Origin: Thermoanaerobaculia bacterium | GTDB lineage: Bacteria > Acidobacteriota > Thermoanaerobaculia > UBA5066 | Direction: 5' to 3' | Length of the DNA stretch: 64,000 nt | NCBI GenBank assembly: GCA_963809425.1 | Contig: CAWEJK010000009.1 | Coordinates: forward strand, 319,982 to 383,981 | Shown: piece by piece, positions 4,132-46,220 of the stretch | Layout of the letters: each line of letters starts with the position of its first letter | How positions within the stretch are numbered: the stretch's first letter is position 1 | Notes under the pieces: model-generated | What the model was told of the DNA's origin: nothing | Databases searched by the model: none | Seen by the model: the letters and a program-made list of their open reading frames with translations, nothing else | Translations under genes and position numbers: made by a program

Positions 4132-4153
4132 GTGGTTCCTCCGCGAAGAATGA

Positions 4154-4909
4154 TCAGGACAAGAGAGCGTACAGCGTCAGGGTCACGAGGAGAAGTCCGA
4201 GCAGCACCGCCGTCGTACCGATGATCCGCCCGCGCTTCAGGATCTCCGGGCCGGGCGCCGGCGCCGCGATTTCCTCGAGCGCGCCGTCCGCGACGAGGCG
4301 GGCATATTCGGCGGGACGCTCGTGCCGGACCTCGTCCAGGGGCAGAACTCCCGTGAAAATGACCGTGTCCATCGGGAACTTCTCGGGCCGAAGGTGCCCG
4401 TTGAAGAAATGAACCGTGAAGATGAAAACGGTGGCGAGAAGCGCCTCCTCGCCGTGAATGAGGAGCGCCACGTTGAAGAGATCCCCGGGCAGGAAGCGAG
4501 CCCAGAACCTCGGGAACCAGAGGATGAGGCCCGAGCCGCCGATGATCCCCATTCCCCAGAACACGGCCCAATAGTCGAATTTTTCCCAGTAGGTGAAGCG
4601 GTCGAACTCGGGCCGCGGGCCCCTGCCGACGAACCAGCGCACGTGTCCGACGAGCTGCTTGAGATCCTCGAGGCGCGGCACCATCGAGCGCGCACCCCAG
4701 AGGAGGCCGTAGTCGCGGTCGCGGAAGATCCTCTTCAGGAGGCGCGCGAGGTGCAGGCCGAACGTGAGCAGCATGCAGATGGCGAAGACGCGGTGCAGGA
4801 AGCCCGCCGCCTGGAAGCCTCCCACGACCCGCGAGAGTTTCGCGGCCCACGCGCGCTCGGAGAAGAGAAGCGGGAGCCCCGTGAAGGAGAGCCCGAGGAA
4901 GCTCGCCAT
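4154..4909 (-). CDS. Dihaem cytochrome b membrane subunit (Ni/Fe-hydrogenase/FdnI-type cytochrome b family)
   Basis: 251 aa with 4-5 predicted TM helices and conserved His-containing helices (FLHRVFAICMLL, LIHGEEALLATVFIFTVHFFNGHLRPEK). It sits directly upstream of an 11-haem cytochrome, as in Geobacter Cbc complexes. Confidence 0.6.
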   Translation of the reverse strand: MASFLGLSFTGLPLLFSERAWAAKLSRVVGGFQAAGFLHRVFAICMLLTFGLHLARLLKRIFRDRDYGLLWGARSMVPRLEDLKQLVGHVRWFVGRGPRPEFDRFTYWEKFDYWAVFWGMGIIGGSGLILWFPRFWARFLPGDLFNVALLIHGEEALLATVFIFTVHFFNGHLRPEKFPMDTVIFTGVLPLDEVRHERPAEYARLVADGALEEIAAPAPGPEILKRGRIIGTTAVLLGLLLVTLTLYALLS

Positions 4910-5010
4910 CAGGAGGACGTGGAGCGAGCGGTCGTACCCGTCGAACCGGCGGACCCAGCCCGTCGTCGCCGCCTACTCGGCGGCCGGAGGTGCGGGAGAC
5001 TCTTCGGGCA

Positions 5011-6252
5011 TCACGCTTCTCCCCCCCTCTTCGCATCGGCGTCCCGGCGCGCCTTCACCGAGCGCGGGAACCAGAGCACGGTGTGGATCCCGAAGAAGGC
5101 GAAGACGCCCACGAGCAGGATCTTCATGAAGAGCGAGGTCGCCCAGAGCAGCTGGCTTCGTCCCCGGTCGTGCGTGTCGGCGTGCGGGTCGTATTTCGCG
5201 AAGCTCGCTCCGACGCCGGGATGACATTTCTGGCAGGTCGCGACGCGCTTCGCGGGCCCGACGGACGAGCGCGCGTCGCCGGCCGGGTGAATCTCGTGCG
5301 CCGTGTGGCAGTCCGCGCAGGTCGCCACGCGGGTGAAGCCCATCGCGCTGACCTGACCGTGATAGGTGTCGCGATAGGTCTTGAGCTGGCGCTCGTGACA
5401 GCCGCCGCACTCATGGAGGATCTGGAGGCGCCGGACCTCGGGAGCCGCCGTGATCGCGTGCGCGGTATGGCAGTCGGCGCAGACGGGCACCTTCAGGTTG
5501 TTCTTCGCGAGCTGCTCGCCGTGGATCGAGGTCGCGTACTCGTCGAGAATCTTCGAGTGGCACGTGCCGCAGGTCGCGGGGATCTTCGATCGAAACACGA
5601 GGCTCTCGGGATCCGTCCTCGGATCGCGGATGGCATGCGCCCCGTGGCAGTTCGCGCAGTTCGGCGCGACCGCGAGCCCGCTCTTCTCGAGCGCCTTGCC
5701 GTGGATGCTGTCGTGGAAGAGGGCGGGCTGGTTCACCGCGGGTCCGCCCGCGCCCGGCACCACCGCGATGTTCGCGTGGCACCTCAGGCAGGTCGTCGGG
5801 AGATTGAAGTGATTCGTCCGCGAAGCGGGGTCCTTCGACGGCCGGATGTCGTGGATCCCGTGGCAGTCCGTGCAGGTCGCTGCCTTGCTGGCCTTCGATT
5901 TCCCGCGCTCTGCGGCATGCACGCTCTTCCGATACTCCTCGACCTCCGACGCGTGGCAGGAGGCGCAGTCGACCGGGGCGAGCTTCTCGGCGTGGGGAAA
6001 ATCCGTCGTCCGGGCCAGGTCCTGGTGGCAATCGACGCAGGCGGCACCGGCGGCCCCGTGCACGGAGTCGCCGAACGCTTTCTTGTCCACGAAAAGGGAG
6101 GACCCATCTGCCCTCTTGGCGGATGGGTCCTCGTGGCAGGCGAGACAGTCGTCGTTCGGCGGGAGGCTTCGGGGCGGCGGCGGGGCCGCCGCCCGGAGGG
6201 GGGCGGCCGTGAACAGAAACGCGGCGAGTACGCCCCCGAGCCTCATCCGCAT
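5011..6252 (-). CDS. Undecahaem c-type cytochrome with signal peptide and C-terminal transmembrane anchor
   Basis: 413 aa with an N-terminal signal peptide (MRMRLGGVLAAFLFTAAPLRAAA) and 11 CxxCH motifs (CLACH, CVDCH, CASCH, CTDCH, CLRCH, CANCH, CGTCH, CADCH, CGGCH, CADCH, CQKCH). A C-terminal hydrophobic helix (LLWATSLFMKILLVGVFAFFGIHTVLWF) precedes a basic tail. Confidence 0.8.
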   Translation of the reverse strand: MRMRLGGVLAAFLFTAAPLRAAAPPPPRSLPPNDDCLACHEDPSAKRADGSSLFVDKKAFGDSVHGAAGAACVDCHQDLARTTDFPHAEKLAPVDCASCHASEVEEYRKSVHAAERGKSKASKAATCTDCHGIHDIRPSKDPASRTNHFNLPTTCLRCHANIAVVPGAGGPAVNQPALFHDSIHGKALEKSGLAVAPNCANCHGAHAIRDPRTDPESLVFRSKIPATCGTCHSKILDEYATSIHGEQLAKNNLKVPVCADCHTAHAITAAPEVRRLQILHECGGCHERQLKTYRDTYHGQVSAMGFTRVATCADCHTAHEIHPAGDARSSVGPAKRVATCQKCHPGVGASFAKYDPHADTHDRGRSQLLWATSLFMKILLVGVFAFFGIHTVLWFPRSVKARRDADAKRGGEA

Positions 6253-6256
6253 CGAT

Positions 6257-6586
6257 TTACTTGGACGCGGGATCGCCGGGGTTCGTCCCCTTCTTGAGCT
6301 CGTCGCCGTTCGACACGCCGTCTCCGTCGCTGTCCAGCTTCTCGAGAGCGACGAAATCGTACTTGCCGTCCTTGCCCTTCACCTTGTTGAGGTCCGCGCC
6401 GAACTTGTTCACGGCGGCCTCGCCCTTCTTCGGCATGGCCTTCGTGTGGCAGGACCCGCATTTGACCTTTGAGTCGGGATACTTCTTCAGAACTTCCTTC
6501 TGGAGATCCATCGCGGCGAACGCCGAGCCCGCGACGAGCGCGGCGGCCGAGGCGAGGGTGACGACTGCGAGACGTGTCTTATTCAT
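6257..6586 (-). CDS. Secreted monohaem cytochrome c with an acidic DxDGDG segment
   Basis: 109 aa with a signal peptide (MNKTRLAVVTLASAAALVAGSAFA) and a single CGSCH motif. The C-terminal segment (LEKLDSDGDGVSNGDELKKGTNPGD) resembles a calcium-binding loop. Confidence 0.7.
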   Translation of the reverse strand: MNKTRLAVVTLASAAALVAGSAFAAMDLQKEVLKKYPDSKVKCGSCHTKAMPKKGEAAVNKFGADLNKVKGKDGKYDFVALEKLDSDGDGVSNGDELKKGTNPGDPASK

Positions 6587-6599
6587 GTCGCTGTTTCCT

Positions 6600-8537
6600 T
6601 CAGGGGCGCCACTTGAGGTAGACGCCGATTCGATTCGCGCGGAAGCTGCTCGATGCGATCTGATAGTCGAGATAGCGGTCGACAGACCACTCGCCGATGA
6701 GTCCGACGTTCGCCGTCGCGTCGAAGTCGACGCGGGCGCCGCCGCGATAGAGACGGTATTCGTAAGTGCCCTCGTTCGCGAAGCGGGTCCAGAAGCCGTC
6801 GATGGCCAGCTTGTCGAACTTGACGCCCAGGCCGGCTTCCAGGAGCTCGCCGTCTTCCTTGTTGACGGAGTCGAACGTCGTGAAGTCCTGCGGAGCGCGG
6901 ACGGGGATCCTGCTGTCGGCCTGCATCTTGCCGTAGGCCCCGTGGAGCCGCAGCATCTTGACCGGCGTGATCGTGACGTCGCCCGTGTACTGGCGCGACG
7001 TGCCCTTGGAGTTGATGAGAAGCGTGTCGTTCTTCTGGTCGACCCAGAGACCGGTTGCGCCGAGCGTGAGCCACGGGAAGCCCTTCCAGGTGGCGCGCAC
7101 GCGCTCGCGGTTGCGGCTCGTGAAGTCGGTCCTGAGAACCGCCACGTCCGCGTCGTCCCACGACACCTCGCCCGCGATGAAGAATCCGCCCGCCGCGTAC
7201 GTGAGGGCGCCCTCGTAACGGTTGATCGTGCGGTCGAAGTTCCCGCCCTGACCGCCCGGGACGACGATCTCGGCCGGATCCTCCGAGACGACGAGGTTCT
7301 GCTGCGTCTGCGACCATCCGGCGCGGATGCCGAAGGGCCCGAAGACCTTCGCGGACGCCTGGACGTCGTAAACGTCTTCCGTGCGCTCGATGGAGTTCTT
7401 CGCGTTCAGCAGCGTCTGGAGGTCGGCGAGCGTGAAGCCCGTGAACGTCGTGGTGCCGCTGTACAGGGTGCTCACGAGGTCCTGGCCGTCCCACGTGGCG
7501 TTGCGACGGACGAAACCGCCCGTCACGTCGACGCCCTCGAGGGCGTGCCACTCGACGCGCGCGCCGGCTCGCCAGACGGAGTTCTGGACGCGGGACGACG
7601 CACTCTCGGTGAGGCCGGTGAAGAAGCGCGAGATGGGGAACGACACGAGGGAGCCGGAAGCGCTCTCTTTTTCCGTGTCGTCTCCGGACGCGTTCGCCTT
7701 GACGTAGAAGCCGATCAGCTGAAGGGAATCGGTCGCGAAACCGCGCAGGAACACCGAGGTCGTCGGGGTGTTGATGTCGGTGACGCTCGTGCGTGAGTAG
7801 GAAGAGAGGTTCAGGTTCTTGTCGAGCACAGGACCCGGGTTGTTGCCGGCGCCCGCCCCGTTGAGGAGGCTGAGCGTCTCGGTCTCCCGGTAGCGGCGCC
7901 AGCCCTGGAGAAACTCGCCCGACACCGGTCCGGCGCGGAAGCCGGCGCCGACGCGGATCTCCTGGTCGTGGACCTTGAGATCCTGCCCGAGGCGAAATTC
8001 ATCCTGGCCGAGAAAGGTCGTCGAAAATCCCGGACCCTTCAGCTTGTTGGACGTGTACCCGACGAGAGGCGTGACGACGGCCCCGGGCAGAAGCTCGAGG
8101 TTGAGGTCCACCATGTCCCGGGTCCGATCCCAGGTCTGCTGACCGACCGGCGCGCCGAGCGGATTCGCGAAGCCGGCGAGCGCGCTGAACTGATCGAGGT
8201 GGCGATAGGAGGCACGGAGGCGATAGGCGCCCGTGAGGCCCGCATCGAGCCTCAGGGACCCGGCGGGGCCGGCCCCGAGCTCGGAGCCGTCGATCCGGAG
8301 GCGGTCGAGAATCGGGAATCCGTTCGTTTTTCCGTCCTCGCCGATGTGGATGCTGCGCACGAGAACCCCTTCGCTCTCGTTGATCTGAGAGCGATAGGAC
8401 TCTTCGCTGCCGCTGAGAGTGAGAAAGCGGTAGCCCACCTCGATGTCGAACGGAATCGCCTGGGCACGGGCGACGCCGGCCGAACCGAGGACGGAGGCGA
8501 GAGCGGCGACGAGGAAGGCGGAGCGGAATGTTCGCAT
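6600..8537 (-). CDS. Outer-membrane beta-barrel protein, MtrB/PioB-like porin partner of the decahaem cytochrome
   Basis: 645 aa with a signal peptide (MRTFRSAFLVAALASVLGSAGVARAQA). The sequence has alternating beta-strand-like character with many aromatic strand ends and C-terminal ...YLKWRP. It lies immediately downstream of the MtrA-like gene (stop 8548, start 8537), the same order as mtrA-mtrB. Confidence 0.6.
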   Translation of the reverse strand: MRTFRSAFLVAALASVLGSAGVARAQAIPFDIEVGYRFLTLSGSEESYRSQINESEGVLVRSIHIGEDGKTNGFPILDRLRIDGSELGAGPAGSLRLDAGLTGAYRLRASYRHLDQFSALAGFANPLGAPVGQQTWDRTRDMVDLNLELLPGAVVTPLVGYTSNKLKGPGFSTTFLGQDEFRLGQDLKVHDQEIRVGAGFRAGPVSGEFLQGWRRYRETETLSLLNGAGAGNNPGPVLDKNLNLSSYSRTSVTDINTPTTSVFLRGFATDSLQLIGFYVKANASGDDTEKESASGSLVSFPISRFFTGLTESASSRVQNSVWRAGARVEWHALEGVDVTGGFVRRNATWDGQDLVSTLYSGTTTFTGFTLADLQTLLNAKNSIERTEDVYDVQASAKVFGPFGIRAGWSQTQQNLVVSEDPAEIVVPGGQGGNFDRTINRYEGALTYAAGGFFIAGEVSWDDADVAVLRTDFTSRNRERVRATWKGFPWLTLGATGLWVDQKNDTLLINSKGTSRQYTGDVTITPVKMLRLHGAYGKMQADSRIPVRAPQDFTTFDSVNKEDGELLEAGLGVKFDKLAIDGFWTRFANEGTYEYRLYRGGARVDFDATANVGLIGEWSVDRYLDYQIASSSFRANRIGVYLKWRP

Positions 8538-8547
8538 CGGCCTGTCC

Positions 8548-9459
8548 TTACTTCAGCAGCTGCGGCGAGCGCTGGGAACCGTGCACGGCGATGTGACAGG
8601 TCGTGCAGTTCTTGTAGCGCGGCAGCGAGATATTGTGGAAAGAAGGCGGCTGCGAGCCCAGAGTCCCCTTCGCGAGCGTCGAGTGACACTCGAGACACTG
8701 CGAGGCGATCGTGGCCCTCTGCAGCTGGTGGGGATACGAGGAGCCATGCGGGATGTGGCAGCTCGTGCAGTCGCCGGCGACACCGTTGACGTGGGGATAG
8801 ACGAACGGACCGCGCACTTCCGCGTGACAGGAGACGCAGCCGGGCTCACCCGCCCGGGTCTCGCGCACCGCGTGCTTGGCCGAACGGCCGTGCGGGTCGT
8901 GGCAGGACACACAGGAGAGCGCCCCTTCTTTCAGCCTGTGTGCGTACGGAAGCGTCCGGAAGGAGGACGCCGCGTCCTGATGGCAGGTCGCGCAGAGCCG
9001 CGTCGGCTCGGACACGAGCAGGTTCGCCTGCTTCGGGCTCGACTTGTGGATCGCGTGGCACGAGAGGCAGTTGACCGCCTCGGACGACGCATGAACTCCC
9101 GTCTTGAACGACGAGCGCTCCGCGGACTGCTTGTGACAGGTCGCGCACGTCTCGGCGCCGGTACGGCCATGGAGCGTCCGGATGAGGGTCTTGTCCCCCC
9201 CGGCCTCCATGTGCTTCGTCCCGTCGCCGTGACACGTGGCGCAAACCTCGTTGCCCAGGGCGCCCTCGTGGGCGGCGCCGTAGGCACGCGTGTGGGGATT
9301 ACCCGCGAAAATCTTGGCCTCGTCGTGGCAGTCGGCGCACGCGGGGCCGGCCTCCACCTTCGCGGGAGCCGGGCTGGCTGGGGCCTGGGCCGTGGCCACC
9401 CCCGCCGTGAGCACGGCGAGGGCGGCGGCGGCGAATGCCCCGGGCGAGAGGTGTTTCAC
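8548..9459 (-). CDS. Periplasmic decahaem c-type cytochrome, MtrA/DmsE/PioA family
   Basis: 303 aa, GTG start, with signal peptide and exactly ten CxxCH motifs (CADCH, CATCH, CATCH, CLSCH, CATCH, CVSCH, CVSCH, CTSCH, CLECH, CTTCH). About 30 aa per haem is characteristic of the MtrA family. Confidence 0.8.
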   Translation of the reverse strand: MKHLSPGAFAAAALAVLTAGVATAQAPASPAPAKVEAGPACADCHDEAKIFAGNPHTRAYGAAHEGALGNEVCATCHGDGTKHMEAGGDKTLIRTLHGRTGAETCATCHKQSAERSSFKTGVHASSEAVNCLSCHAIHKSSPKQANLLVSEPTRLCATCHQDAASSFRTLPYAHRLKEGALSCVSCHDPHGRSAKHAVRETRAGEPGCVSCHAEVRGPFVYPHVNGVAGDCTSCHIPHGSSYPHQLQRATIASQCLECHSTLAKGTLGSQPPSFHNISLPRYKNCTTCHIAVHGSQRSPQLLK

Positions 9460-9471
9460 GGCCTCTACTCG

Positions 9472-11598
9472 TTACCGCGCGTGAACTTTCGCGACGTCGA
9501 GATCGGTTCCGGTGCCGTGGCAGGTTCCGCAGGCCTCGGCAGGAGCGGTCGGGTCTTTCGGGAAGAACGCCGTGTTGAGGAATGCGTGCGCGGCGACGTC
9601 GCGGCTGTCATGGCAGCCGGTGCATGCGGCAGTCGCCGAGCCGCGCGGGGAGAAGAAGTCGCGATCGGTGACGACCGGAACGTTCGTGAGCGGGAGCGGG
9701 AGCGCGTAGCTGGCCGCGTTCACGTGGCAGGCGAGGCAGTTCCGGCGGTCGCCGGGGTACAGAACCTCGTTGAAGCTGGCCCCGGTGCCGGAGTTGCCGA
9801 AGATCGTGAAGTCCTGCGTCAGATTCTCGCCCGTGTGGATGCGGTGGATCATGCGCGCGAACTCGATCGACTCGCCGGGGGCGTCCTCGGGCTTGGCACG
9901 ACGGGCAAGGTCGGTGCCGTTCGGGTTGTGGCAGATGACACAGTGCTCGATCGTGATGCGCTGGTTGCCGTGCGAGAAGAGGACCTTGAGGTCCTGGTGG
10001 CACGAGTTGCACTTCGTGAGAGAGACGACCGTCCTGCGCGGAACGACCGTCGTGCCCGTGACCGCGAAGGAAAACGGCTGGTTCGGGGCGCCCTCGTTGA
10101 CCGAGGTCGGGCCATTCGTCGGGGCCGGGTTCAGCACGATCGGGCGGCGCGTGTCGATCGAGACGGTGTACGAGCCCTTGGCCGCGGCCGGGAGGGCGTT
10201 CGTGAACGTGTATGTCGCGGTGCCCGTGGCCGCGTCATAAGTGACCGGTGTCCCGCCCGTGGGCGGAATGGCCGGGCTCTCACTGAACGGCTGGCCGTTC
10301 GCGGCCATGCCGGCGTTCGTGTAGTCGGTCGTCGGTCCGCCGAGTTTGATGCTGAGGGAGCCGTTCGAGGAGGTCTTGTAGATAGTCGGGTCGACGAACG
10401 AGCCGTCGCCGTTCTTGAGCTGGAATTTCACGGTGATCTTCTTGCCGGGGCCCGCGTTCGAAACCGAGAGGATCGTGGCCGTGTAGCCCTTGAGCTGGGC
10501 CGAGTGGAGCGGAACGACGTGGGCGTTCTTGATGCCGGCGTCCCACTCGACGTCGCCCTGGGGCTTATGGCAGTCCACGCACGTGCCGTCCGCGGCCGGT
10601 CCGACGTTCGAGTGGTTCGCGCCCGTGACGAAGTTCACGTCGCTGTGGCAGGAGCCGCAGGCCGCGATCGAGGGCTTCGTGTACCAGCTGTCTCCGCCGA
10701 CCGCCGTCTTGTCGTGGCAGGACTCGCAGTTGCGGATGTCCTGCGGGTACGTCATGCCCGGAACGACCTCCTCTTCCAGCCCCGCGTGGATGCGGTGCCA
10801 GAAGACCTGGCCGTTGTACCGGCCGCGGTCCTCGCCCGGCTCGCCGCCCGAGCCGGCGATCAGGCCCGTCATGTTGTTCGGGTTGTGGCACATCGTGCAC
10901 GTCTTGAGGTCACGGTAGTTGCCGCCGTGCAGCGCGAGCGGGTCGTGGCACTGGTTGCACTTCGCGAGCTTCGAGGCGTTCCACGTCGTCGCGACCGCGT
11001 TCGTGGACGGGACGAAGTCCAGGTACTGCGGCACCGCGTAGTACTGCTTGCCGATGATGTCGGTCGTGTTGCGCGCGCCCATGACGGCGAGCGTGTGCGG
11101 CTTCGTCGCGTCCATCGTCGCCGGGAGGGCGTTCGCGAACGTGTACTTGTAGTGGCCGGTCTCGAGCTCCTGGAATGTGCCCGTGTTGTCGCGGCCCGGG
11201 TTCGCGTTCTTGGCTGGGTCCGCGTTGAAGCCGATGTAGTTCGTGTAGTACTTCTTCGTCGCGTCCCAGACGGCCGGGATGAACCGGATCGAGATGACGC
11301 CCGGCGTCAGAAGGCCGTTGCGGTCCAGGGGTCCCTTCAGGTCGTCGGTCATGAAGATCTCGACGACGGGCTTCTGGCCCGCCGCGAAGTTCGTGACCGA
11401 GGCGATCTTCAGGTTGAAGCCCGGGCGGATGTACGTGAGCTGGTCCGGCGCGAGGAAGGCTTCCTTCTGGGTGGACGCGTAGGCCACCGGAACGTCGGCC
11501 GCCGCCGGGGTATGGGGGCTGGTGCGCGTCACGGGCGTCATGGGCACCGCGACGAGACCAGCGAGGAGAGTAAGAGCCGTACGTGATACCAGTGACAT
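9472..11598 (-). CDS. Large secreted/outer-surface decahaem c-type cytochrome, OmcA/MtrC-like
   Basis: 708 aa with an AAGGAGG ribosome-binding site 7 nt upstream of the ATG at 11598 and a signal peptide. Ten CxxCH motifs fall in two penta-haem groups (CNQCH, CTMCH, CESCH, CGSCH, CVDCH; then CNSCH, CVICH, CLACH, CTGCH, CGTCH). A T/S/G-rich beta-domain separates the two groups. Confidence 0.7.
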   Translation of the reverse strand: MSLVSRTALTLLAGLVAVPMTPVTRTSPHTPAAADVPVAYASTQKEAFLAPDQLTYIRPGFNLKIASVTNFAAGQKPVVEIFMTDDLKGPLDRNGLLTPGVISIRFIPAVWDATKKYYTNYIGFNADPAKNANPGRDNTGTFQELETGHYKYTFANALPATMDATKPHTLAVMGARNTTDIIGKQYYAVPQYLDFVPSTNAVATTWNASKLAKCNQCHDPLALHGGNYRDLKTCTMCHNPNNMTGLIAGSGGEPGEDRGRYNGQVFWHRIHAGLEEEVVPGMTYPQDIRNCESCHDKTAVGGDSWYTKPSIAACGSCHSDVNFVTGANHSNVGPAADGTCVDCHKPQGDVEWDAGIKNAHVVPLHSAQLKGYTATILSVSNAGPGKKITVKFQLKNGDGSFVDPTIYKTSSNGSLSIKLGGPTTDYTNAGMAANGQPFSESPAIPPTGGTPVTYDAATGTATYTFTNALPAAAKGSYTVSIDTRRPIVLNPAPTNGPTSVNEGAPNQPFSFAVTGTTVVPRRTVVSLTKCNSCHQDLKVLFSHGNQRITIEHCVICHNPNGTDLARRAKPEDAPGESIEFARMIHRIHTGENLTQDFTIFGNSGTGASFNEVLYPGDRRNCLACHVNAASYALPLPLTNVPVVTDRDFFSPRGSATAACTGCHDSRDVAAHAFLNTAFFPKDPTAPAEACGTCHGTGTDLDVAKVHAR

Positions 11599-11835
11599 CG
11601 TCAGCCTCCTTGCCGGAAATGAATTTGCGAAACGTTAACGAACAGACGTTCGAAGGAAGTGGCCGTTTTCATCCGATGGTCAGAGTAGGAGCAAGGCCAT
11701 ACCGAAGCTTTGATTCAGTTGCATCAAATTACTGCAAGGTACAAGCTTGGGGTTTGTCCGGCACATATTGATCAGAAAGAGGTAATCTCCTCCGAACAGC
11801 AGGTCCGCTTCTCGGAACTCTCGTTGGAGTACCTT

Positions 11836-13530: not shown

Positions 13531-14805
13531 TCAGGTGACGGCCGGACCCTCGTCCGCGAAGCGCCGCCAGCGCTCCTCGTCGAGCACACGCCGGAACCGC
13601 GCGACCGCTTCGACGAGGTCGGAAAACCGCGTCGCGAGCGGCGAGAGCCCGAAACGGATCAAGTCGGGCGGCCGGAAGTCGGGAATGACGTTCATCTCCC
13701 CGATGAGCGCGCGGTCTACGGCGAGGCCCTCGGGGTGGCCGAACGAGACGTGCGCGCCGCGCCGCGCGGCGTCGCGCGGCGAACGCAGCGTCACGCCGCG
13801 CGTTTCGAGAGCCGACTCCCACAGGCGCACGAGGAACTCCCCGAGGGCCACGGTCTTCTTCCGGGCCGGCTCGATACCCGCCTCGAGCGCGAGGTCGACA
13901 CCCGCCTCCGCGCCGACGAGCGAAAGGATCGGCGGCGTGCCCACGAGGAACCGCGAGATGTCCCGCGCCGGCTCGTACCCGTCCCGGAACGAGAAGGGCT
14001 CGTGGCGCGAGAACCAGCCGGGAATCGGGTTCTGAAGAGTCTCCTGCAGCGCGCGGCGCACGTAGAGAAAGGCGGGCGCGCCCGGCCCTCCGTTCAGGTA
14101 CTTGTACGTGCAGCCGACCGCGAGATCCGCGCCGGACGCCTCGAGGTCGACCTGGACCGCGCCGACGGAATGGCTGACGTCCCAGAGAACGAGCGCGCCT
14201 TTCGCGTGGGCGCGCGCCGTGACCGCCGGGAGGTCGTGGAGGAATCCGCTCCTGTAAGCGACGTGCGACAGCGACACGAGCGCCGTGTCCTCCGTGATGG
14301 CTGCGCCGAGATCCGCGTCGTCGATCGCGATGCCGTCGCGCGACGGGACGACGACGACGCCGTGTCCCGCCTCCAGGAGGGCCGCCGCGCCTTCGAGGAC
14401 GTAGAGATCCGACGGAAAGTTCAAAGCGTCCGTGACGATCGTGCGGCGTCCGCGCCGCGCCCGGAGCGCCGCCACGGCGAGCTTGAAGAGATTCACGCTG
14501 GTGCCGTCGGACACGGCGACCTCGCCGTCCCCCGCGCCGAGGAGACGCGCGAGCTTGTCGCCGACGCGGCGCGGCGCGTCCACCCACCCGTCGTTCCAGC
14601 CCCGAACGAGGCGCGCGCCCCATTCCTCCTGGACGGCGCGCCCGACGAGAGCCGCCGACCTCTTCGGCAACCGCCCGAGCGAATTGCCGTCGAAATAGAG
14701 GAGGTCCTCGTCGTCGAACACGAACTCGTCGCGGAAGCGCGCAAGCGGGTCCGCGCGGTCGAGCGACCGGGCCTCCTCGCGGAGCGCTTCCCAGGGAATC
14801 GTCAA
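13531..14805 (-). CDS. kynU: Kynureninase-like PLP-dependent enzyme (aminotransferase class V fold)
   Basis: The N-terminal ~175 codons of ORF 13531..15321 are R/G-rich junk overlapping hemL. The real protein starts at a TTG whose last base overlaps the hemL TGA stop (TTGA, 14802-14805). Kynureninase-type motifs are present (LLYFDGNSLGRLPK, ...VGCTYKYLNGGPGAPAFLYV). Confidence 0.55.
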   Translation of the reverse strand: MTIPWEALREEARSLDRADPLARFRDEFVFDDEDLLYFDGNSLGRLPKRSAALVGRAVQEEWGARLVRGWNDGWVDAPRRVGDKLARLLGAGDGEVAVSDGTSVNLFKLAVAALRARRGRRTIVTDALNFPSDLYVLEGAAALLEAGHGVVVVPSRDGIAIDDADLGAAITEDTALVSLSHVAYRSGFLHDLPAVTARAHAKGALVLWDVSHSVGAVQVDLEASGADLAVGCTYKYLNGGPGAPAFLYVRRALQETLQNPIPGWFSRHEPFSFRDGYEPARDISRFLVGTPPILSLVGAEAGVDLALEAGIEPARKKTVALGEFLVRLWESALETRGVTLRSPRDAARRGAHVSFGHPEGLAVDRALIGEMNVIPDFRPPDLIRFGLSPLATRFSDLVEAVARFRRVLDEERWRRFADEGPAVT

Positions 14806-16163
14806 CCGCCGGCCGGAAGTGAAAAGGCCGCTCTCAGCCCGGCTTCGTGAGCCTTCACGGTGGCCGCGACGTCGCGTGCCGTGTGCGCGGTCGAGACGAA
14901 CATCGCTTCGAACTGCGCCGGAGCCACGAAGACGCCGCTCCGGAGCAGCGCGTGGAACCAGCGCTTGAACGCTTCGAGGTCGGACTTCTTCGCGTCGTCG
15001 AAGTTCTTCACGGGGCCCACGGTGAAGAACGGCGTCAGGATCGATCCCACGCGGTTGATCGAGACGCGGTCCTGGACGCCGAGCTTCTTCGCGGCGGCGT
15101 TCAGCCCGCGTTCGAGCTCCTTCGCGGTCTTCTCGAGCTTCACGTAGACGGCGGGCGTCAGGCAATCGAGCATCGCCTTCCCCGCCGCCATCGCGAGCGG
15201 GTTCCCGGAGAGCGTTCCGGCCTGGTACACGGGGCCGTCCGGCGCGATCCGCGCCATGAGGTCCGCGCGGCCGCCGTAGGCGCCGACGGGCAGTCCCCCG
15301 CCGATGATCTTGCCGAGGCACGTCAGGTCGGGCCGGATCCCGTACAGCTCCTGCGCTCCGCCTCTCGCCACCCGAAAGCCGCTGATGACCTCGTCGAAGA
15401 GCAGCAGCGCTCCTTCGCGGTCCGCGATGCGGCGGAGGCCCTCGAGAAAGCCCGGGGCAGGCGCCACGACGCCCATGTTCGCGGCGATCGGCTCGACGGC
15501 GATGACGGCGATGCGCTTCGGATGCGCCCGAAAGAGGTCCTCGACGGACTCCAGGTCGTTGTAACGCGCGGTCAGCGTGAGGCCGGCGAGAGAGCTCGGG
15601 ACGCCGGGCGAGCCCGGAATGCCGAGCGTCGCGAGACCCGAGCCCGCCGAAACGAGAAACGAGTCGGCGTGCCCGTGGTAGCAGCCCGCGAACTTCAGGA
15701 CGAGGTCGCGGCCCGTGGCGCCGCGCGCGAGGCGCAGCGCGCTCATCGCGGCCTCCGTTCCCGAGGACACGAACCGCACCTTCTCGATCGACGGGAAGGC
15801 CTTCGTGACGCGCTCGGCGAGCTCGACCTCCCCCTTCGAAGGCGCGCCGTAGGACGTGCCGCGCGGCAACGCCCTGCGGACCGCCGACAGGACCGGCCCG
15901 TACGCGTGCCCGAACACGAGCGGCCCGTACGACATGACCCAGTCGACGTACCGGTTCCCGTCCGCGTCGATCAGGGTCGCGCCGCGGCCCTTCTTCACGA
16001 AGAACGGCTGGCCGCCCACGGACGCGAACGAGCGCACCGGCGACGACACGCCGCCTGGCATGCGTTTCTTGGCTCGTTCGAAGAGCGCTTCGGATTGAAG
16101 AGTTCTGCGGTGACGCTTTCGACCGGTAGTGGCGCTTCGTGCTGATTTATCGCTCATCGTCAT
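14802..16163 (-). CDS. hemL: Glutamate-1-semialdehyde 2,1-aminomutase
   Basis: 453 aa with family hallmarks (ALFERAKKRMPGGVSSPVRSF, ...DEVISGFRV...). The exact start within the first ~30 codons is uncertain. Confidence 0.9.
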   Translation of the reverse strand: MTMSDKSARSATTGRKRHRRTLQSEALFERAKKRMPGGVSSPVRSFASVGGQPFFVKKGRGATLIDADGNRYVDWVMSYGPLVFGHAYGPVLSAVRRALPRGTSYGAPSKGEVELAERVTKAFPSIEKVRFVSSGTEAAMSALRLARGATGRDLVLKFAGCYHGHADSFLVSAGSGLATLGIPGSPGVPSSLAGLTLTARYNDLESVEDLFRAHPKRIAVIAVEPIAANMGVVAPAPGFLEGLRRIADREGALLLFDEVISGFRVARGGAQELYGIRPDLTCLGKIIGGGLPVGAYGGRADLMARIAPDGPVYQAGTLSGNPLAMAAGKAMLDCLTPAVYVKLEKTAKELERGLNAAAKKLGVQDRVSINRVGSILTPFFTVGPVKNFDDAKKSDLEAFKRWFHALLRSGVFVAPAQFEAMFVSTAHTARDVAATVKAHEAGLRAAFSLPAGG

Positions 16164-16372
16164 GTCGCATTTCTTTCTGCTATGCGGCGGCCGCTTTGCG
16201 GCCGCCGACGGAAGTCAATCTCTGCCCGAATGTCCGGTGTCAAGGGCGCGCTCGCGCGCCGCGCAGCGGTCACCGACCCTTGACATCGGACATTCGGGAG
16301 CACATTCGTTTCTTCGGGTGGCCGCGAATGCGGCCACCGATAGCAGGAACCCCCTCTTTCTTCCCTCTTCTT
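16164..16372. repeat. ~210-bp palindromic MITE/REP-like intergenic element (copy A) between hemL and hemB
   Basis: Terminal inverted repeat CTGCTAT...ATAGCAG. Internal GC hairpins are GCGGCGGCCGC-TTT-GCGGCCGCCG and GGTGGCCGC-GAAT-GCGGCCACC. The central long hairpin is CCCGAATGTCCGG-TGTCAAGGG-[32 nt]-CCCTTGACA-T-CGGACATTCGGG. The element is flanked by pyrimidine tracts (TTTCTTTCTG and CTCTTTCTTCCCTCTTCTTCTAAG). The core is ~85% identical to copy B at 44222-44436. Confidence 0.6.
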
Positions 16373-17344
16373 CTAAGCCAGCCACTCGGCGGCTTCCTTC
16401 GCGTGATACGTGAGGATGAGGTCCGCGCCCGCGCGCCGCATCGACGTGAGGATCTCGAGCGTCACGCGCTTGCCGTCGATCCAGCCGTTCGCCGCCGCGG
16501 CCTTCACCATCGCGTACTCCCCGGACACGTTGTAGCAGGCGACGGGCACGTTCGTGGCCTCCTTCGCCGCGCGGACGACGTCGAGGTACGCGAGCGCGGG
16601 CTTGACCATCACGAGGTCGGCGCCCTCCTCGACGTCCGAGAGGATCTCCTTCACGCCCTCGCGCACGTTCGCCGGATCCATCTGGTAGGAGCGCCGGTCG
16701 CCGAAGGAGGGGGTCGACCCGGCGGCCTCGCGGAACGGGCCGTAGAACCCGGACGCGTACTTCGCGGCGTACGCGAGGAGCGCGACGTCGCGAAATCCCC
16801 CGCCGTCGAGCTTCGCGCGGATCGCGCCGACGCGCCCGTCCATCATGTCGGAAGGCGCGACGACGTCCGCGCCCGCCGCCGCGTGCGCGAGCGCCTGCGC
16901 CGCGAGGAGAGGCAGCGTCGCGTCGTTGTCCACGGTGCCCTCGGCGAGCGCGCCGCAGTGGCCGTGGTCCGTGTACTCGCACAGGCAGACGTCCGTCATG
17001 ACGACCGTGGCCGGGCTCTCGGCCTTGATCGCCCGCACCGCCCGGCAGACCGGGCCCTCGGGATCGGCGCCCGAAGTGCCCATCGCGTCCTTGCGCTCGG
17101 GAATCCCGAAAAGGATCACGGAGAGGACGCCGAGGGAGGCGAGGCCCTTCGCGTCTTTCGCGGCCAGGTCGGCCGAGACCCGGTCGACGCCCGGCATCGA
17201 CGGCACCGGCTGCCGCACGCCGCGTCCCGGCACGACGAAGAGCGGCGCGATGAAGTGCGACGGAGCGAGAGACGTCTCCCGCACGAGCGTCCGCAGGCTC
17301 TCGGAGCGCCGCAGGCGGCGGTAGCGGTGGAGGGGAAAGCTCAT
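16373..17344 (-). CDS. hemB: Porphobilinogen synthase (delta-aminolevulinic acid dehydratase)
   Basis: Internal ATG (MSFPLHRYRRLRRSESLRTLVRE...) is the genuine start; the upstream 40 codons are junk. Conserved active-site lysine regions are present (VAPSDMMDGRV, ...YQMDP...). The start overlaps the hemD stop (ATGA at 17341-17344). Confidence 0.9.
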   Translation of the reverse strand: MSFPLHRYRRLRRSESLRTLVRETSLAPSHFIAPLFVVPGRGVRQPVPSMPGVDRVSADLAAKDAKGLASLGVLSVILFGIPERKDAMGTSGADPEGPVCRAVRAIKAESPATVVMTDVCLCEYTDHGHCGALAEGTVDNDATLPLLAAQALAHAAAGADVVAPSDMMDGRVGAIRAKLDGGGFRDVALLAYAAKYASGFYGPFREAAGSTPSFGDRRSYQMDPANVREGVKEILSDVEEGADLVMVKPALAYLDVVRAAKEATNVPVACYNVSGEYAMVKAAAANGWIDGKRVTLEILTSMRRAGADLILTYHAKEAAEWLA

Positions 17345-18102
17345 CGTATTTCCTTCCGGAGGAGGGCGAGGAGTTCGGAGAGGCGCGCGTGGGCGGGAAC
17401 CAAAGGCGTGGGCAGCCCCCGGGCCGTGACGGCCTTCGCGGTCTCGGGCCCGAGCACGCCCCATCTTAACGGCGGGAGAGACGCGGCCGGCGCGGCCAGG
17501 GCGGCGAGAAGCGCGTCGAGACCCGCCGTCGAGCCCACGGCCACGGCGGCGAACCGTCTGGCACGGAGGTCGGAGAGGATCGACGGATTCATCTCGGAGG
17601 CGGAGAGAGGACGTTTTTCGTAGACCACGGGGGCGACGAGCTGAATGCCGAGCGCACGAATTCCCTCGAACGCCTCCGGGGCCGAATCCGAGCCGTGTGG
17701 CCAGAGGAGGCGCATGTGCGAAGGAGCAGGGGACTTCTTCAGGTAGGCGATGACGCCCGCGGCTCCCGGTATCTCGGGAACGACGATCGGCGCCGCGTTC
17801 TGGGTCGAGGCCGCGGCGCGGCGTCCCGGGTCGCTGCCCCCCATGATCACCCTTCTCAGCAGCTCCCCGGTGCCCTCGCCGACCGCCAGCATCTGCGCGA
17901 ACGACGAGCGAAAGAGCGGAAGAAGAAACCCGATCGTCTCCTTCGACGAGACGACGAGCGTCGCGCCATCCGTGTCGAACGCGAGCGCCTCGGCAATCCC
18001 CTGGGGGCGCGGCGAGACGGCGTGCGTGTAGAGAACGGTCACGTCCCCCGAGAAGGCGTCTTCGGATCCGGCGGCGCCGGAGCGAAGGAGAAGGATCCTC
18101 AC
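17341..18102 (-). CDS. hemD: Uroporphyrinogen-III synthase
   Basis: 253 aa, GTG start, HemD-like length with weak family similarity. Position in the hemA-C-D-B order supports the call. Confidence 0.65.
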   Translation of the reverse strand: MRILLLRSGAAGSEDAFSGDVTVLYTHAVSPRPQGIAEALAFDTDGATLVVSSKETIGFLLPLFRSSFAQMLAVGEGTGELLRRVIMGGSDPGRRAAASTQNAAPIVVPEIPGAAGVIAYLKKSPAPSHMRLLWPHGSDSAPEAFEGIRALGIQLVAPVVYEKRPLSASEMNPSILSDLRARRFAAVAVGSTAGLDALLAALAAPAASLPPLRWGVLGPETAKAVTARGLPTPLVPAHARLSELLALLRKEIR

Positions 18103-18130: not shown

Positions 18131-19175
18131 TCACGGAGTCGTCGCTCGCGCCGCGTCGATGAGCCGCGCAGCGCCGCGCGCGAGGAGGCGCTCGGCGAGC
18201 TGGCGGCCCAGGGAGGAGGAGAAAGAAGAAGAGGAAGAGAAAGAGGAAGAGGAAGATTTCTTAGAAGGAAGAGAGAGGGGAACCTGTGGCAGAGGCGTGC
18301 TCAAATCTTCTTCCAGGCATTCGCGCCCATCGAGTGAGAGCACGCGGCCCACGAGCTTCAGCGTGCGATTTCCCTCTTCACCTTCTAAGAATCCTCGAGC
18401 GCCGACAGGCGCTCGACATCCCCCTCTTAGAACAAAACAGAAGCTCTCTCTCGGCCTCCGCCGCAACTCGTGAGCTGAAATCGTCCATTTGTTCCAGCGC
18501 CGCGATCGTCTCGGCGTCGTCCGCCCGGCAGCCGATGCCGAGCGCGCCCTGCGCCGGCGCGCCGAGCATCTCGTCCCGCTCGAGCCGGCGCGTGATGACG
18601 CCTCCCCTGTCGAGCCTGTCGAGGCCCGCGCACGCGAGGATGAGCGCGTCGGCGCGGCCCTCCTCGAGGCGCTGGAGGCGCGTGTCGACGTTGCCGGCGA
18701 TCGCGACCGTCACGAGGTCGGGCCGGATTCGGAGGAGCTGCGACACGCGCCGGGGCGACGACGTGGCCACGCGCGCGCCGGGTGGAAGCGCGCTCACGCT
18801 CGTCACGCCCGCGTGACGCGAGGCGACGACGAACGCGTCGCGCGCGTCCGCGCGTCTCGGCACGGCGGCGAGCCGGACGCCCGCGGCCACGACCGTGGGG
18901 ACGTCCTTGAGGGAGTGGACCGCGAAGTCGATCTCGTTCGCGAGGAGCGCCTCGTCGAGCGCGCGCACGAAGACGCCCGCGGCATCGCCTCCGGGAGGGG
19001 CCTTGCCCTCGCTGGAGAGCTGGTCCCCCTGGGTGCGGATGATGACGGTCTCGACGGGGCGGCCCGAGATCCGGGAAAGCTCCGCCGCGAAGGCTCCCGA
19101 CTGCGCGCGGGCGAGCGCGCTGGCGCGCGTGCCCATCCGGAGCGGCCGCGTCGGGACGGCGGGAGCCGCCGTCAT
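18131..19175 (-). CDS. hemC: Hydroxymethylbilane synthase (porphobilinogen deaminase), disrupted by an apparent +1 frameshift at a C5 run (18420-18424). It carries an ~18-aa Ser-rich insertion near the C-terminus.
   Basis: The N-terminal 250 aa lie in the frame of ORF 18378..19463 (MTAAPAVPTRPLRMGTRASALARAQS...). The conserved GGCRAPVGA...LGRQLAERLLARGAARLI C-terminus lies in the frame of ORF 18131..18466. The span is 1045 nt, which is 3n+1. The ATG at 19173-19175 overlaps the hemA TGA stop (ATGA). Confidence 0.8.
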
Positions 19176-26236: not shown

Positions 26237-26259
26237 ATCCTGAAGGCATTCTACGCCGG

Positions 26260-26359
26260 TGCTAACCTCGCGCCCGCGAGCGCCATTCCGATCCGACTCG
26301 GCGGCGAGACGCTCCCGATGACCACGGAGCTGTTCGACAAAGACAACGTCCAGTCTTAA
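26260..26359 (+). pseudogene. Decayed ~100-bp duplicate of the hemN 5' end, including the TGCTAACCTCGCGCCCG motif
   Basis: 26260-26355 is ~90% identical to 28169-28265. The copy reads (A)SAIPIRLGGETLPMTTELFDKDNVQS then stops. The GTG start is mutated to GCG. Confidence 0.6.
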
Positions 26360-28064: not shown

Positions 28065-28168
28065 GGATGCGCGCTCGCGCCGCCGCGTGCCCGGGCGGTG
28101 ACGGTCCTCGAGTGAGCGCGGCCCCGACCTCCTGATGCAATTGAAGGACGAGACTCCGTCGCGACGAG

Positions 28169-28184
28169 TGCTAACCTCGCGCCC
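28169..28184 (+). promoter_or_regulatory. TGCTAACCTCGCGCCC motif immediately 5' of the hemN GTG start
   Basis: Same motif as 21363-21379 and 26260-26276. Confidence 0.3.
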
Positions 28185-29612: not shown

Positions 29613-29652
29613 GCGGTTCGGCAGGGGCGATATTGAATTTCTTAGAAGGCGA

Positions 29653-32048: not shown

Positions 32049-32054
32049 GATCCC

Positions 32055-32124
32055 GAGAGCAGGAAGCAGGAAAGAAAGAGGAAAAGAAAGAAAGACAAAG
32101 ATGCTTAGAAAGGAAAGAGGGAGG
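32055..32124. repeat. Polypurine tract (~70 nt, about 90% A/G on the plus strand) containing GATGCTTAGAAAGGAAAGAGGG
   Basis: Sequence AGAGCAGGAAGCAGGAAAGAAAGAGGAAAAGAAAGAAAGACAAAGATGCTTAGAAAGGAAAGAGGGAGG. It is related to the tracts at 18214-18262, 31187-31245, 55545-55600 and 44225-44250. Confidence 0.6.
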
Positions 32125-43414: not shown

Positions 43415-43423
43415 GCCGGGCCG

Positions 43424-45889: not shown

Positions 45890-46220
45890 CTCACTCAATC
45901 GGTCCTCCGGGGTTGGCTCCTCGTACCGAGCCAACGGACTTCCCTCGTGGCCTCCGGTCGGAGACGGCGTTCCATGGTGAACGCACGGGTCTTCCGGACT
46001 TCGGGCCCCTGACTTGGGTTCTCCCTGGCGGGGCGGCGCGGTTTCGTCGGCTTGTCGGCTTCGCTCGCCGTTCCGGTGCCGGTTCACGGCGCCGTGGGGC
46101 TCCGACGTTCGAGGCCGCCCTGCAGAAAGGAATGCTACGCCAACCGTCCGGGGCGCGTCAATCCGGCCACTTTCCGCGACAAACGGGGCGGAACGGACCG
46201 TGCATCCGGGGGTCGCTACA

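Follow-up and report, generated by a model that had tools for sequence, protein, structure and literature searches.

The 64,000-nucleotide stretch of contig CAWEJK010000009.1 from a Thermoanaerobaculia bacterium (assembly GCA_963809425.1), hereafter the window, raises the question of what fills two of its intergenic spacers. The 209-bp spacer between hemB and hemL and the 215-bp spacer between an alpha/beta hydrolase gene and rho are each wholly occupied by one copy of a palindromic repeat, designated copy A and copy B (Table 1). Both hem genes lie on the minus strand; the hydrolase and rho genes are convergent. A sequence-only reading of the window had given the positions and gene contexts of both copies correctly, as confirmed with NCBIfam and synteny tables of relatives. 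On balance, the two loci are regarded here as copies of a low-copy, non-autonomous, nested-palindromic interspersed element, similar to hairpin-forming doublets of repetitive extragenic palindromes (REPs), known as REPINs, to bacterial interspersed mosaic elements (BIMEs) and to MITEs (miniature inverted-repeat transposable elements). It is a dispersed, structurally constrained and insertion-polymorphic palindrome at gene ends, with nested inversions, and it takes its place among interspersed palindromes outside every named family.

The element measures about 170 bp between its tags and about 210 bp with the GA/TC-rich outer tracts. From outside inward, each half consists of a purine-rich tract of 10-35 nt, (A)TTTCT, the tag CTGCTAT, a local GC hairpin (stem of 9-10 bp, loop of 3-6 nt), a spacer of 13-17 nt, an arm of 12-14 nt and TGTCAAGG. 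The first bases of the purine-rich tract are often the stop codon of the neighbouring gene. In the centre, TGTCAAGG pairs with CCTTGACA to form a stem, P1, which encloses 32-33 nt with three mini-hairpins, a (GCGCGC-TCC-GCGCGC), b (CCGC-NNN-GCGG) and c (GGYC-GAA-GRCC). The spacers are of two non-complementary types, reading ..GAACGTGTT.. and ..GAATCTGG.. toward the core; the loop that results is internal, and it lends the arms a polarity. Nearly all copies have CTGCTAT/ATAGCAG as their tag, the variants being CTTATAT, CTGATAT and CAGCTAT, and the outer ends are inverted (GA tract and GATTTCT ... AGAAATC and TC tract). The core, which the sequence-only reading had offered as a possible recognition end, is the centre of the element.

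Over 49 positions, the cores of copies A and B show 7 differences (about 86% identity), which bears out the earlier claim that sequence is conserved besides structure. The 12-14-nt arms beside the core are wholly unlike in sequence between the two copies, yet complementary inside each. When both copies were aligned on two strands, the core of the A plus strand matched the B plus strand and the outer arms of the A plus strand matched the B minus strand; from A to B, the core has thus changed its orientation with respect to the arms. The sequence-only comparison had recognised the shared parts and missed this opposite orientation, and its left/right layout had to be amended, with the GGTGGCCGC hairpin on the right side in A and on the left side in B.

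Two matches to TGTCAAGG-N20-45-CCTTGACA were present in the window, copies A and B, with none expected from 100 shuffles. For the family at large, one genome per bacterial species, a collection to which the window organism's own genome does not belong, was scanned with the pattern CTGCTAT-N40-65-TGTCAAGG-N26-40-CCTTGACA, leaving the core interior free; about seven chance matches are expected from base counts. The scan returned 38 loci, 25 of them clear relatives with the full anatomy, in 10 metagenome-assembled genomes (MAGs) from different projects and sequencing technologies. These MAGs are labelled Thermoanaerobaculia or Acidobacteriota, and one Acidithiobacillales, labels that may be wrong. 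The remaining loci are chance matches and one assembly foldback (L031). With the strict pattern a genome holds one to seven copies, a number that is biased, like the apparent invariance of the motifs, by the requirement of the scan patterns for an intact P1 (in the first scan also for one intact tag). No extra full copies were found by an nhmmer profile in the fetched loci. The element occurs only in Thermoanaerobaculia and Acidobacteriota related to them; its tip is far more widespread, as described below.

Five B-type copies, 88-93% identical to window copy B, were located at unrelated loci of a single MAG (SMAG_U16405), which establishes dispersal within one genome. The sequence-only reading had postulated a repeat family and had named a genome-wide count of just two copies, combined with no small-RNA signal, as the sign of a local duplication; the count is 25 loci in 10 species-level MAGs, and no local duplication is involved. 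The probability that the resemblance is due to chance, local duplication or an assembly artefact is negligible. Artefacts do occur in these data, since L031 is a foldback and at least one probable indel error is present in the window, in rho. Against this stand the zero window matches expected by chance, the independence of the 25 loci, an orthologous copy at locus L029 and the clearly passed covariation controls described below, which together refute all three explanations.

The foldback at 7400-7800 of L031, from a Verrucomicrobiae long-read MAG, is perfect over more than 400 nt, with TGTCAAGG...CCTTGACA at its centre. An assembly chimera is almost certainly the cause, and the locus was rejected as a cross-phylum member. 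Three half-copies (L008 at 1863, L025 at 2743, L026) were considered as neighbours of an autonomous partner, and this too was rejected: they are plain truncations beside ordinary promoters or genes.

Insertion was assessed by comparing the hem locus of five relatives, retrieved via their HemL homologues. In four relatives (L168, L169, L170 and L172, whose HemL proteins are 77-94% identical to that of the window, the four values being 94, 88, 87 and 77%) hemB and hemL overlap without any spacer, and the empty junction reads ...GAGTGGCTGGCGTGATGCGAAAGCG..., the stop TGA overlapping the start ATG (TGATG). L029 is an orthologous locus with the element at hemB-hemL, 81% identical to the window over 5.3 kb. 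In the window, the new stop codon of hemB is the TAG that opens the GA tract (GGCT TAG AAGAAGAGG), and HemL has a new start and a 14-residue N-terminal extension. The junction of the fifth relative, L171, holds a different palindromic element, with a GA tract and ATTTTCTTAGAAGGGTGAA ... TTCACCTTCTAAGGAAAT, followed by the same new hemL leader. No direct repeat could be recognised when filled and empty junctions were compared; the insertion is compound, consisting of the element and a 60-nt new hemL leader. The HemL extension (MTMSDKSARSATTG, window 16101-16163, minus strand) is lineage-specific, and the DNA that codes for it was brought in together with the spacer. L171 has a comparable extension (MSEKSARSA..); the relatives with overlapping hemB/hemL start at MRKR....

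The site of copy B was compared in the syntenic helicase-hydrolase-rho region of four relatives, where no copy of the studied family was found. These sites contain another gene, a 120-bp element of a second palindromic family, an IS5-like insertion or a DoxX gene. Presence/absence polymorphism at orthologous sites was found at both hemB-hemL and hydrolase-rho, and the contrast of filled and empty sites is consistent with the non-autonomous mobile element that the sequence-only reading had listed among its options. The hydrolase-rho spacer is in itself a recurrent landing site: in another Thermoanaerobaculia lineage (L042/L043, 10805-12134) it is occupied by a DDE transposase element that is IS5/IS1182-like and has a CTAG duplication.

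The second family is the commoner one. It consists of a GA-rich tract and GATTT(T)CTTAGAAGG(T/G)GAAGAGGG with the inverted partner CCTTCTAAGAA, and was observed in the window at 18209-18293 with 18353-18396, at 29608-29670, at 31166-31249, at 32046-32130 with 32177-32247 and at 55501-55609. One copy fills the hemC-hemD spacer; hemC and hemD overlap or abut in relatives. Another 16 copies lie in 537 kb of Thermoanaerobaculia loci, and members are also present in L171, at the hemB-hemL junction, and in L040/L041, between the hydrolase gene and rho. The outer end, a GA tract and GATTTCT, is common to the studied and the second family. Different elements at the same junction, together with this shared outer end, suggest that conversion between copies or a shared insertion machinery may be at work.

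The folding z-scores of the individual elements range from -6.5 to -10.9 relative to shuffles, on either strand and as RNA or as DNA. RNAalifold on 23 full copies recovered both local hairpins, the arms, P1 and mini-hairpins a and b, with 49 pairs. Compensatory double changes were found in 22 of these pairs, compared to 12.6 in shuffles; 96.9% of the cells are paired (85.5% shuffled) and 114 cells show double changes (29 shuffled). Pairing registers slid by one to three columns gave 32-51% of cells paired. Covariation, which the sequence-only reading had put forward as a check, is thus well above controls, and the stems are maintained through compensatory change.

The copies lie in about 11 convergent, 13 tandem and one divergent context, as called by a crude codon-position test on the flanks. 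The element is located at the 3' ends of genes and in the junctions between cistrons, and can provide a stop codon there. All four combinations of core and arm orientation versus transcription were seen, tandem contexts included. Core polarity against the arms occurs both ways (about 10 versus 8 by reading, 8 versus 7 by an automatic rule), and the core flips within single arm subfamilies too (L017 and L024 versus L018 and L028; L015 versus the B subfamily). Inversions were also found at sites whose orthology was checked: everything that the tags enclose stands in opposite orientation in L001 and L006, L008 and L024 have different arm subfamilies in opposite order, and the orientation of L026 is opposite to that of L002, L019 and L027. 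No significant strand bias in G.U pairs or folding energy was detected among the Thermoanaerobaculia copies, with strands set by core, arm type or transcription.

In the window, a scan of 26 open reading frames (ORFs) with Pfam, and tblastn, gave no transposase, relaxase or integrase, which speaks for a non-autonomous element and agrees with the earlier remark that no transposase is nearby; nor do the 64 kb hold a gene for a REP-associated tyrosine transposase (RAYT, an IS200/IS605-like Y1 transposase). Several observations weigh against a non-autonomous interspersed element. Copy number is low, and no family copy was detected by nhmmer in about 185 kb of syntenic DNA of relatives; decayed copies are under-sampled, since the pattern needs an intact P1 and one intact tag. 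In 537 kb, 40 instances of the tagged hairpin unit belong to elements and a single one lies outside, unlike classical REPs. No target-site duplication is definable, the GA/TC outer tracts varying in length and the true ends being fuzzy. A mobilising enzyme was neither found nor linked to the element, and no autonomous element with the same outer ends was seen in about 1.4 Mb of loci. Occupation of the identical hemB-hemL junction by two element families in separate lineages resembles cassette replacement or conversion more than it does random transposition. Finally, four other sites are common to species with flanks 73-81% identical, from which it follows that some copies are old, and at these sites conservation of the elements equals or exceeds that of the genes beside them. 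Sites kept for so long could mean host-level selection over selfish persistence.

Selection by the host for a cis-acting structure, of RNA or DNA, at the ends of genes is accordingly to be weighed, and we consider it possible, if unlikely. Such a structure, copied to a few sites and kept as useful, would be a hairpin at transcript ends that works in both directions, stabilising 3' ends, insulating convergent genes from each other or decoupling genes that are translationally coupled. The four long-kept sites and their conservation favour it, as does the strong 3'-end bias, with only one of about 25 copies between divergent genes. Very stable folds predicted on both strands would fit convergent transcription, and the stems are preserved by compensatory changes, but self-correcting palindromes may look conserved without selection, and a mere stabilising hairpin has no need of an invariant 8-bp P1 and a conserved tip. 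Moreover, there is no U-tract and hence no canonical intrinsic terminator, copy A lies inside an essential operon, where termination would harm, and close relatives lack the element at both window sites.

The TTGACA hexamers pointed out in the sequence-only reading are present on both strands, but have no usable -10 in the window copies. Consensus scans revealed neither a sigma-70 promoter (TTGACA with TAnnnT 16-18 nt downstream) in copies A and B nor, on either strand of either copy, an intrinsic terminator of a hairpin and a T/U run. Searches of Rfam 15 at gathering thresholds gave no match in the window or in 20 loci with related tip hairpins; at relaxed E-values only spurious plant miRNA hairpin models appeared, far under threshold. 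A gene for a small structured or antisense RNA, transcribed from its own promoter at the hexamers, is therefore very improbable, despite the conserved tip with its three covarying mini-hairpins and the TTGACA on both strands: -10, terminator and Rfam match are lacking, core and arms stand in both orientations versus neighbouring genes, and the wobble pairs show no strand asymmetry. The same points tell against the small structured RNA that the sequence-only reading had entertained. Also dropped were attC, dif/Xer, CRISPR, retron and Y-RNA, their defining motifs or neighbour genes being absent. No description of the element was found in the literature on Thermoanaerobaculia/Acidobacteria repeats, on the motifs TGTCAAGG/CCTTGACA and on Frpo.

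Two apparently chance matches of the genome scan, from Beijerinckia and from a Pseudobdellovibrionaceae MAG, had core-like hairpins on unrelated arms. The tip was therefore searched more widely with the pattern TGTCAAGG-N10-22-CCGC-NNN-GCGG-N5-14-CCTTGACA, for which about one chance match is expected from base counts. It matched three viral contigs and at least 120 metagenome contigs, with a GC content of 0.36 to 0.73. The matches share one design, in which a hairpin a of free sequence, a CCGC/GCGG hairpin, a short c and complementary arms make up hairpins of 120-140 nt. Hairpin c is often GGTC-N2-3-GACC as in the window copies, though it lay outside the search pattern, and this extends to members associated with relaxase genes (below). 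Both window copies possess P1, hairpin a, CCGC-NNN-GCGG, a short c and an internal loop 13-17 bp from P1, the loop being kept at 13-15 bp. Judged by sequence pattern and predicted pairing, the core belongs to a much wider hairpin superfamily, so it is not specific to the Thermoanaerobaculia family. No description of the tip hairpins was found in the searched literature.

Some arm groups of the superfamily have homologous flanks and represent the same locus in related genomes; others have none and are dispersed repeats. In one viral contig (L047, GC 0.48) the tip hairpin, at 8249-8299, lies between convergent genes, and both its arms read as near-consensus promoters, TTGACA-N16-TATAAT and TTGACA-N18-TACAAT. 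Genes for IS110-family (RNA-guided) transposases were noticed about 40 nt from the tip hairpins of a dispersed arm group (L052, L070, L127 and L138). The IS110 family has a habit of targeting repeated palindromes, and this proximity suggests that TGTCAAGG-tipped hairpins may serve as IS110 targets.

Clustering of ORFs identified a TrwC/TraI-type MobF relaxase of 900-930 residues (NCBIfam MobF, E=1e-65) as recurrent neighbour. The hairpin is located 3' of the relaxase ORF at 18 out of 18 such loci, mostly 50-90 nt past the ORF end, and the relaxases form two clades that are only about 28% identical. A tyrosine integrase and a tRNA gene usually lie downstream of the hairpin. One arm often reads TTGACA-N16-TAYGCT. 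TANNNT occurs 16-18 nt from TTGACA in 26 of 126 hairpins, compared to 0-4 at other spacings, and in the relaxase-associated hairpins this hexamer is in a mismatched internal loop, with G.T/G.U pairs biased to the strand reading TTGACA-N16-TAYGCT. In these hairpins, as in the Thermoanaerobaculia copies, the core switches its orientation against the arms (L095 versus the main group); it is oriented either way to the relaxase (9 versus 9), and the orientation of the arms differs between the relaxase clades. No tRNA gene is placed directly downstream of a promoter-like arm; the tRNAs are integration sites farther off. In one arm group GTCT/AT (arms CCGTCT/ATCC) is found 12 nt after the inner stem, a geometry absent from the window copies. 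A representative locus from an Acidobacteriaceae MAG (L173 10001-16202, JBATVK010000148) comprises a TrwC-type relaxase, a 433-residue ORF, the hairpin (core 14281-14326), an Xis-like helix-turn-helix ORF, a tyrosine integrase and tRNA-Glu, with no type IV secretion genes within 10 kb; it is the compact end of an integrative mobilisable element.

Frpo of the F plasmid, ssi of ColIb and ssoA of rolling-circle plasmids are single-stranded DNA promoters or single-strand origins (sso). The relaxase-side hairpins resemble them in architecture only, with a long imperfect hairpin, a TTGACA -35 in the stem, a -10 in a mismatched loop 16-18 bp away, and a location on conjugatively transferred DNA. We know of no sequence similarity of the tip hairpins to Frpo or sso, and to our knowledge a three-hairpin tip is not a described feature of either. 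Unlike Frpo and sso, the window copies lack a -10 and are chromosomal. An equivalence of hairpin b with CS-6 (TAGCG) of ssoA was rejected, the loop being variable (GAA, GCA, GTA, TTC, TAC).

The origin of transfer (oriT) of MobF systems (TrwC/TraI) offers a second comparison, with an inverted repeat IR2 and, about 8 nt from the repeat, a nick site with a GTGT/GTCT motif, GTCT/ATAGC in R388 (PMC4176350). The superfamily likewise has a hairpin that precedes, on its 5' side and in one and the same strand, a short single-stranded motif, beside a TrwC-family relaxase gene, and GTCT/AT in one arm group; the hairpin-plus-tag geometry of the window element is also of the type that HUH enzymes recognise. 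However, the superfamily hairpin exceeds IR2 greatly in size, its distance to the putative nick is 12 nt instead of 8, the motif is not conserved across arm groups, and in the window the tags are on the outer side of the local hairpins, with no relaxase.

These resemblances raise an alternative that we hold to be quite unlikely, namely that the central hairpin acts as single-stranded DNA derived from conjugative or mobilisable elements, as a Frpo/sso-type, RNA-polymerase-dependent promoter or priming site, with a duplex TTGACA -35 and a pre-melted -10 loop, or as the inverted repeat beside the nick site of a MobF oriT, and that the Thermoanaerobaculia copies are dispersed orphan derivatives on which a relaxase or RNA polymerase may still act. 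The sharing of P1, hairpin b and architecture by at least 120 metagenomic and three viral-contig hairpins, with about one expected, points in this direction, as do the placement behind relaxases of two divergent clades at 18 loci, often with integrase and tRNA next, the preferred TANNNT spacing inside a mismatched loop (26/126), the G.T bias, and arms such as CCGTCT/ATCC that resemble the R388 nick (PMC4176350). The window copies retain the internal loop 13-15 bp from P1, but have no acceptable -10 and no strand bias, and lie between core chromosomal genes in 64 kb devoid of relaxase and integrase. For the mobilisable elements themselves, a double-stranded TTGACA-N16-TAYGCT arm could simply be an ordinary promoter of the downstream xis-int genes, the arm orientation to the relaxase is not constant between clades, and the spacing from stem to putative nick departs from that of R388. 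BLAST against the plasmids of PLSDB with the element and one relaxase-associated hairpin gave no match.

In mobilisable elements the tip may be a duplex xis-int promoter with a palindromic upstream region, a Frpo/sso-type single-strand promoter or priming hairpin, or part of oriT. A more far-reaching proposal, unlikely as it stands, is that the tip hairpin would be an undescribed, phylum-spanning single-stranded DNA signal of MobF integrative mobilisable or conjugative elements, for RNA-polymerase-dependent priming or early expression before xis-int or as part of oriT, and that the Thermoanaerobaculia repeats would be its miniature chromosomal derivatives. If the module has a single-strand function, the window copies, without -10 and strand bias, are probably degenerate derivatives.

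Among described interspersed palindromes, the closest are REP dimers, known as REPINs (Bertels and Rainey 2011, PMC3116915), enterobacterial BIMEs and GTAG/CGTC-tagged REPs (Di Nocera et al. 2013, PMC3733652), REPs being short palindromes, rich in GC, that carry GTAG or CGTC as an unpaired tag on one of their ends. Like the element, REP dimers have two head-to-head GC hairpins with stems of 9-10 bp, loops of 3-6 nt and an unpaired outer tag, which fold apart or as one large stem-loop, and a structured spacer; they are mostly downstream of genes, include subfamilies and heterodimers, and most copies are without an adjacent transposase (PMC3733652). The element differs by its tag CTGCTAT/ATAGCAG instead of GTAG or CGTC, by a hairpin unit that essentially never stands alone, by one to seven copies per genome with the strict pattern instead of tens to thousands, by a spacer that is a conserved hairpin of about 100 nt with an invariant tip shared across phyla, and by ends of GA/TC-rich outer tracts; no RAYT was identified for it. 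In view of its tag, the unit not found alone, its low copy number and the lack of a known RAYT, it is not classed as a REP.

Hairpin MITEs (Correia/NEMIS, ERIC, RUP, Nezha) are similar in size, about 100-250 bp, and in forming an overall inverted repeat. They insert in intergenic or intercistronic positions with co-transcription, may supply stop codons or change gene ends, and show presence/absence polymorphism between relatives. In contrast to these, the element has nested local hairpins and is most conserved at its centre instead of its ends, and it has no defined terminal inverted repeat that matches a known insertion sequence (IS). As neither a target-site duplication nor an autonomous relative was found, MITE membership is not demonstrable. 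A further analogy is provided by the inverted terminal repeats of parvoviruses and adeno-associated virus, which are flip/flop terminal palindromes. Here too, a long stem is capped by small palindromes in both orientations; the element, however, lies inside a chromosome and not at a replicon end, and has several nested levels of inversion, for which ordinary inverted-repeat recombination or template switching suffices.

If both loci are, as favoured here, copies of a non-autonomous interspersed element, occasional spread would take place via an intermediate in the form of a single-stranded hairpin, on which an enzyme from a gene elsewhere would act in trans. Recognition of hairpin and tag by an HUH-type enzyme (RAYT, IS200/IS605 or relaxase-like) would be the most economical guess, since HUH enzymes recognise such a geometry and, within the same phylum, HUH relaxase genes have the central module as a neighbour. 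Segments would be exchanged between copies by ectopic conversion. Intrastrand template switching or recombination between inverted arms would keep the arms complementary and flip the enclosed segments; complementary, subfamily-specific arms and nested flips are the expected outcome, so that no invertase or selection on RNA is required. The inserted element would be transcribed along with the neighbouring genes and form a very stable RNA hairpin, which would be tolerated inside operons because it has no U-tract terminator, and may incidentally protect 3' ends.

Table 1. Features of the two repeat copies and their flanking genes in the window (strand. where none applies).
Feature	Positions	Strand	Basis
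hemL	14802-16163	-	NCBIfam; synteny with relatives
Copy A: element and short leader of the new hemL start	16164-16372	.	nhmmer match 16167-16380, E=3e-47
A, left tag CTGCTAT	16177-16183	+	sequence reading
A, GC hairpin H1, GGCGGCCGC-TTT-GCGGCCGCC	16185-16207 (hairpin letters 16186-16206)	.	sequence; predicted helix 1
A, left spacer, type 2 (..GTCAATCTCTG); mismatched internal loop with 16299-16315	16208-16224	.	sequence
A, left variable arm CCCGAATGTCCGG; pairs with 16286-16298	16225-16237	.	sequence; predicted pairing
A, core: P1 TGTCAAGG/CCTTGACA and mini-hairpins a-c	16238-16285	+	pattern; predicted pairing
A, P1 5' strand TGTCAAGG; tip; CCTTGACA	16238-16245; 16246-16277; 16278-16285	+	
A, mini-hairpins a GCGCGC..GCGCGC, b CCGC-GCA-GCGG, c GGTC-ACC-GACC	within 16246-16277		
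A, right variable arm TCGGACATTCGGG	16286-16298	.	sequence
A, right spacer, reverse complement of type 1 (AGCACATTCGTTTCTTC)	16299-16315	.	sequence
A, GC hairpin H2, GGTGGCCGC-GAAT-GCGGCCACC	16316-16339 (hairpin letters 16317-16338)	.	sequence; predicted helix 5
A, right tag ATAGCAG	16340-16346	+	sequence
A, purine-rich tract TAGAAGAAGAGGGAAGAAAGAGGGGGTTC (minus-strand reading); first triplet 16373-16375 is the hemB stop	16347-16372	-	sequence reading
hemB	16373-17464	-	NCBIfam; synteny with relatives
Alpha/beta hydrolase gene, stop 44219-44221	43424-44221	+	NCBIfam; synteny with relatives
Copy B, whole spacer	44222-44436	.	nhmmer match 44224-44438, E=5e-60
B, left purine-rich tract and TTTCTT (TCCAAGAGAAGAAAGAGAGAGAATACTTTCTT)	44222-44253	+	sequence
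B, left tag CTGCTAT	44254-44260	+	sequence
B, GC hairpin H1, GGTGGCCGC-GTGC-GCGGCCACC	44261-44284 (hairpin letters 44262-44283)	.	sequence; predicted fold
B, left spacer, type 1 (GAAGGAAAAACGTGTT)	44285-44300	.	sequence
B, left variable arm GCCGGGCGGCGGC; pairs with 44363-44375	44301-44313	.	sequence
B, core: P1 and three mini-hairpins; plus-strand orientation as core of A, arms opposite	44314-44362	+	
B, P1 5' strand; CCTTGACA	44314-44321; 44355-44362	+	
B, right variable arm GCCCTCGCCCGGC	44363-44375	.	sequence
B, right spacer, reverse complement of type 2 (CCAGATTCATTCC)	44376-44388	.	sequence
B, H2, degenerate GC hairpin (CCGGCGGCGGCGAACTGCGGCGCCG)	44389-44413	.	sequence
B, right tag ATAGCAG	44414-44420	+	sequence
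B, right AAAT and pyrimidine-rich tract (AAATGAATTCTCTCTC); inverted partner of left tract; abuts rho stop	44421-44436	+	
rho stop	44437-44439	-	NCBIfam; synteny with relatives

In rho (window 44437-44660), a 1-nt insertion was observed near 44572 relative to two orthologues (TACGACGCCGGACGAG versus TACGACG-CGGACGAG). It puts the final 45 codons or so out of frame and is either a sequencing indel or a genuine frameshift; the shifted frame is open through copy B and gives rise to a spurious ORF of 1195 residues (42860-46447). With at least one probable indel error in the window, single-base indels between the copies, such as that in hairpin a of copy A, are not to be over-read. A multihaem cytochrome cluster with NapC/NirT-like, paired CXXCH and MtrC/MtrF-like domains lies beside the hem operon (2668-11634) and represents ordinary gene content. 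A direct repeat of 95 nt, 93% identical, was seen at 26259-26353 and 28168-28262, 1.9 kb apart, one copy lying at the start of a radical-SAM gene.

The finding accounts for two odd spacers of the window. Palindromic insertions have entered an essential hem operon whose genes are normally coupled in translation, and have rewritten a stop and a start codon. A repeat family is defined in a poorly known class of Acidobacteriota, and its most conserved part is linked to an apparently undescribed hairpin module, present in at least 120 environmental contigs and placed, in a subset of them, between relaxase and integrase genes. The nested inversions form a natural data set on how palindromes keep their arms complementary without selection. 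If the module is a single-strand promoter, a priming site or part of an oriT, it would provide a marker for mobilisable elements in uncultured bacteria and an instance of a transfer signal turned genomic repeat. Should it be such a single-stranded DNA signal, orphan sites recognised by relaxase or RNA polymerase could seed chromosomal mobilisation or element-driven rearrangement.

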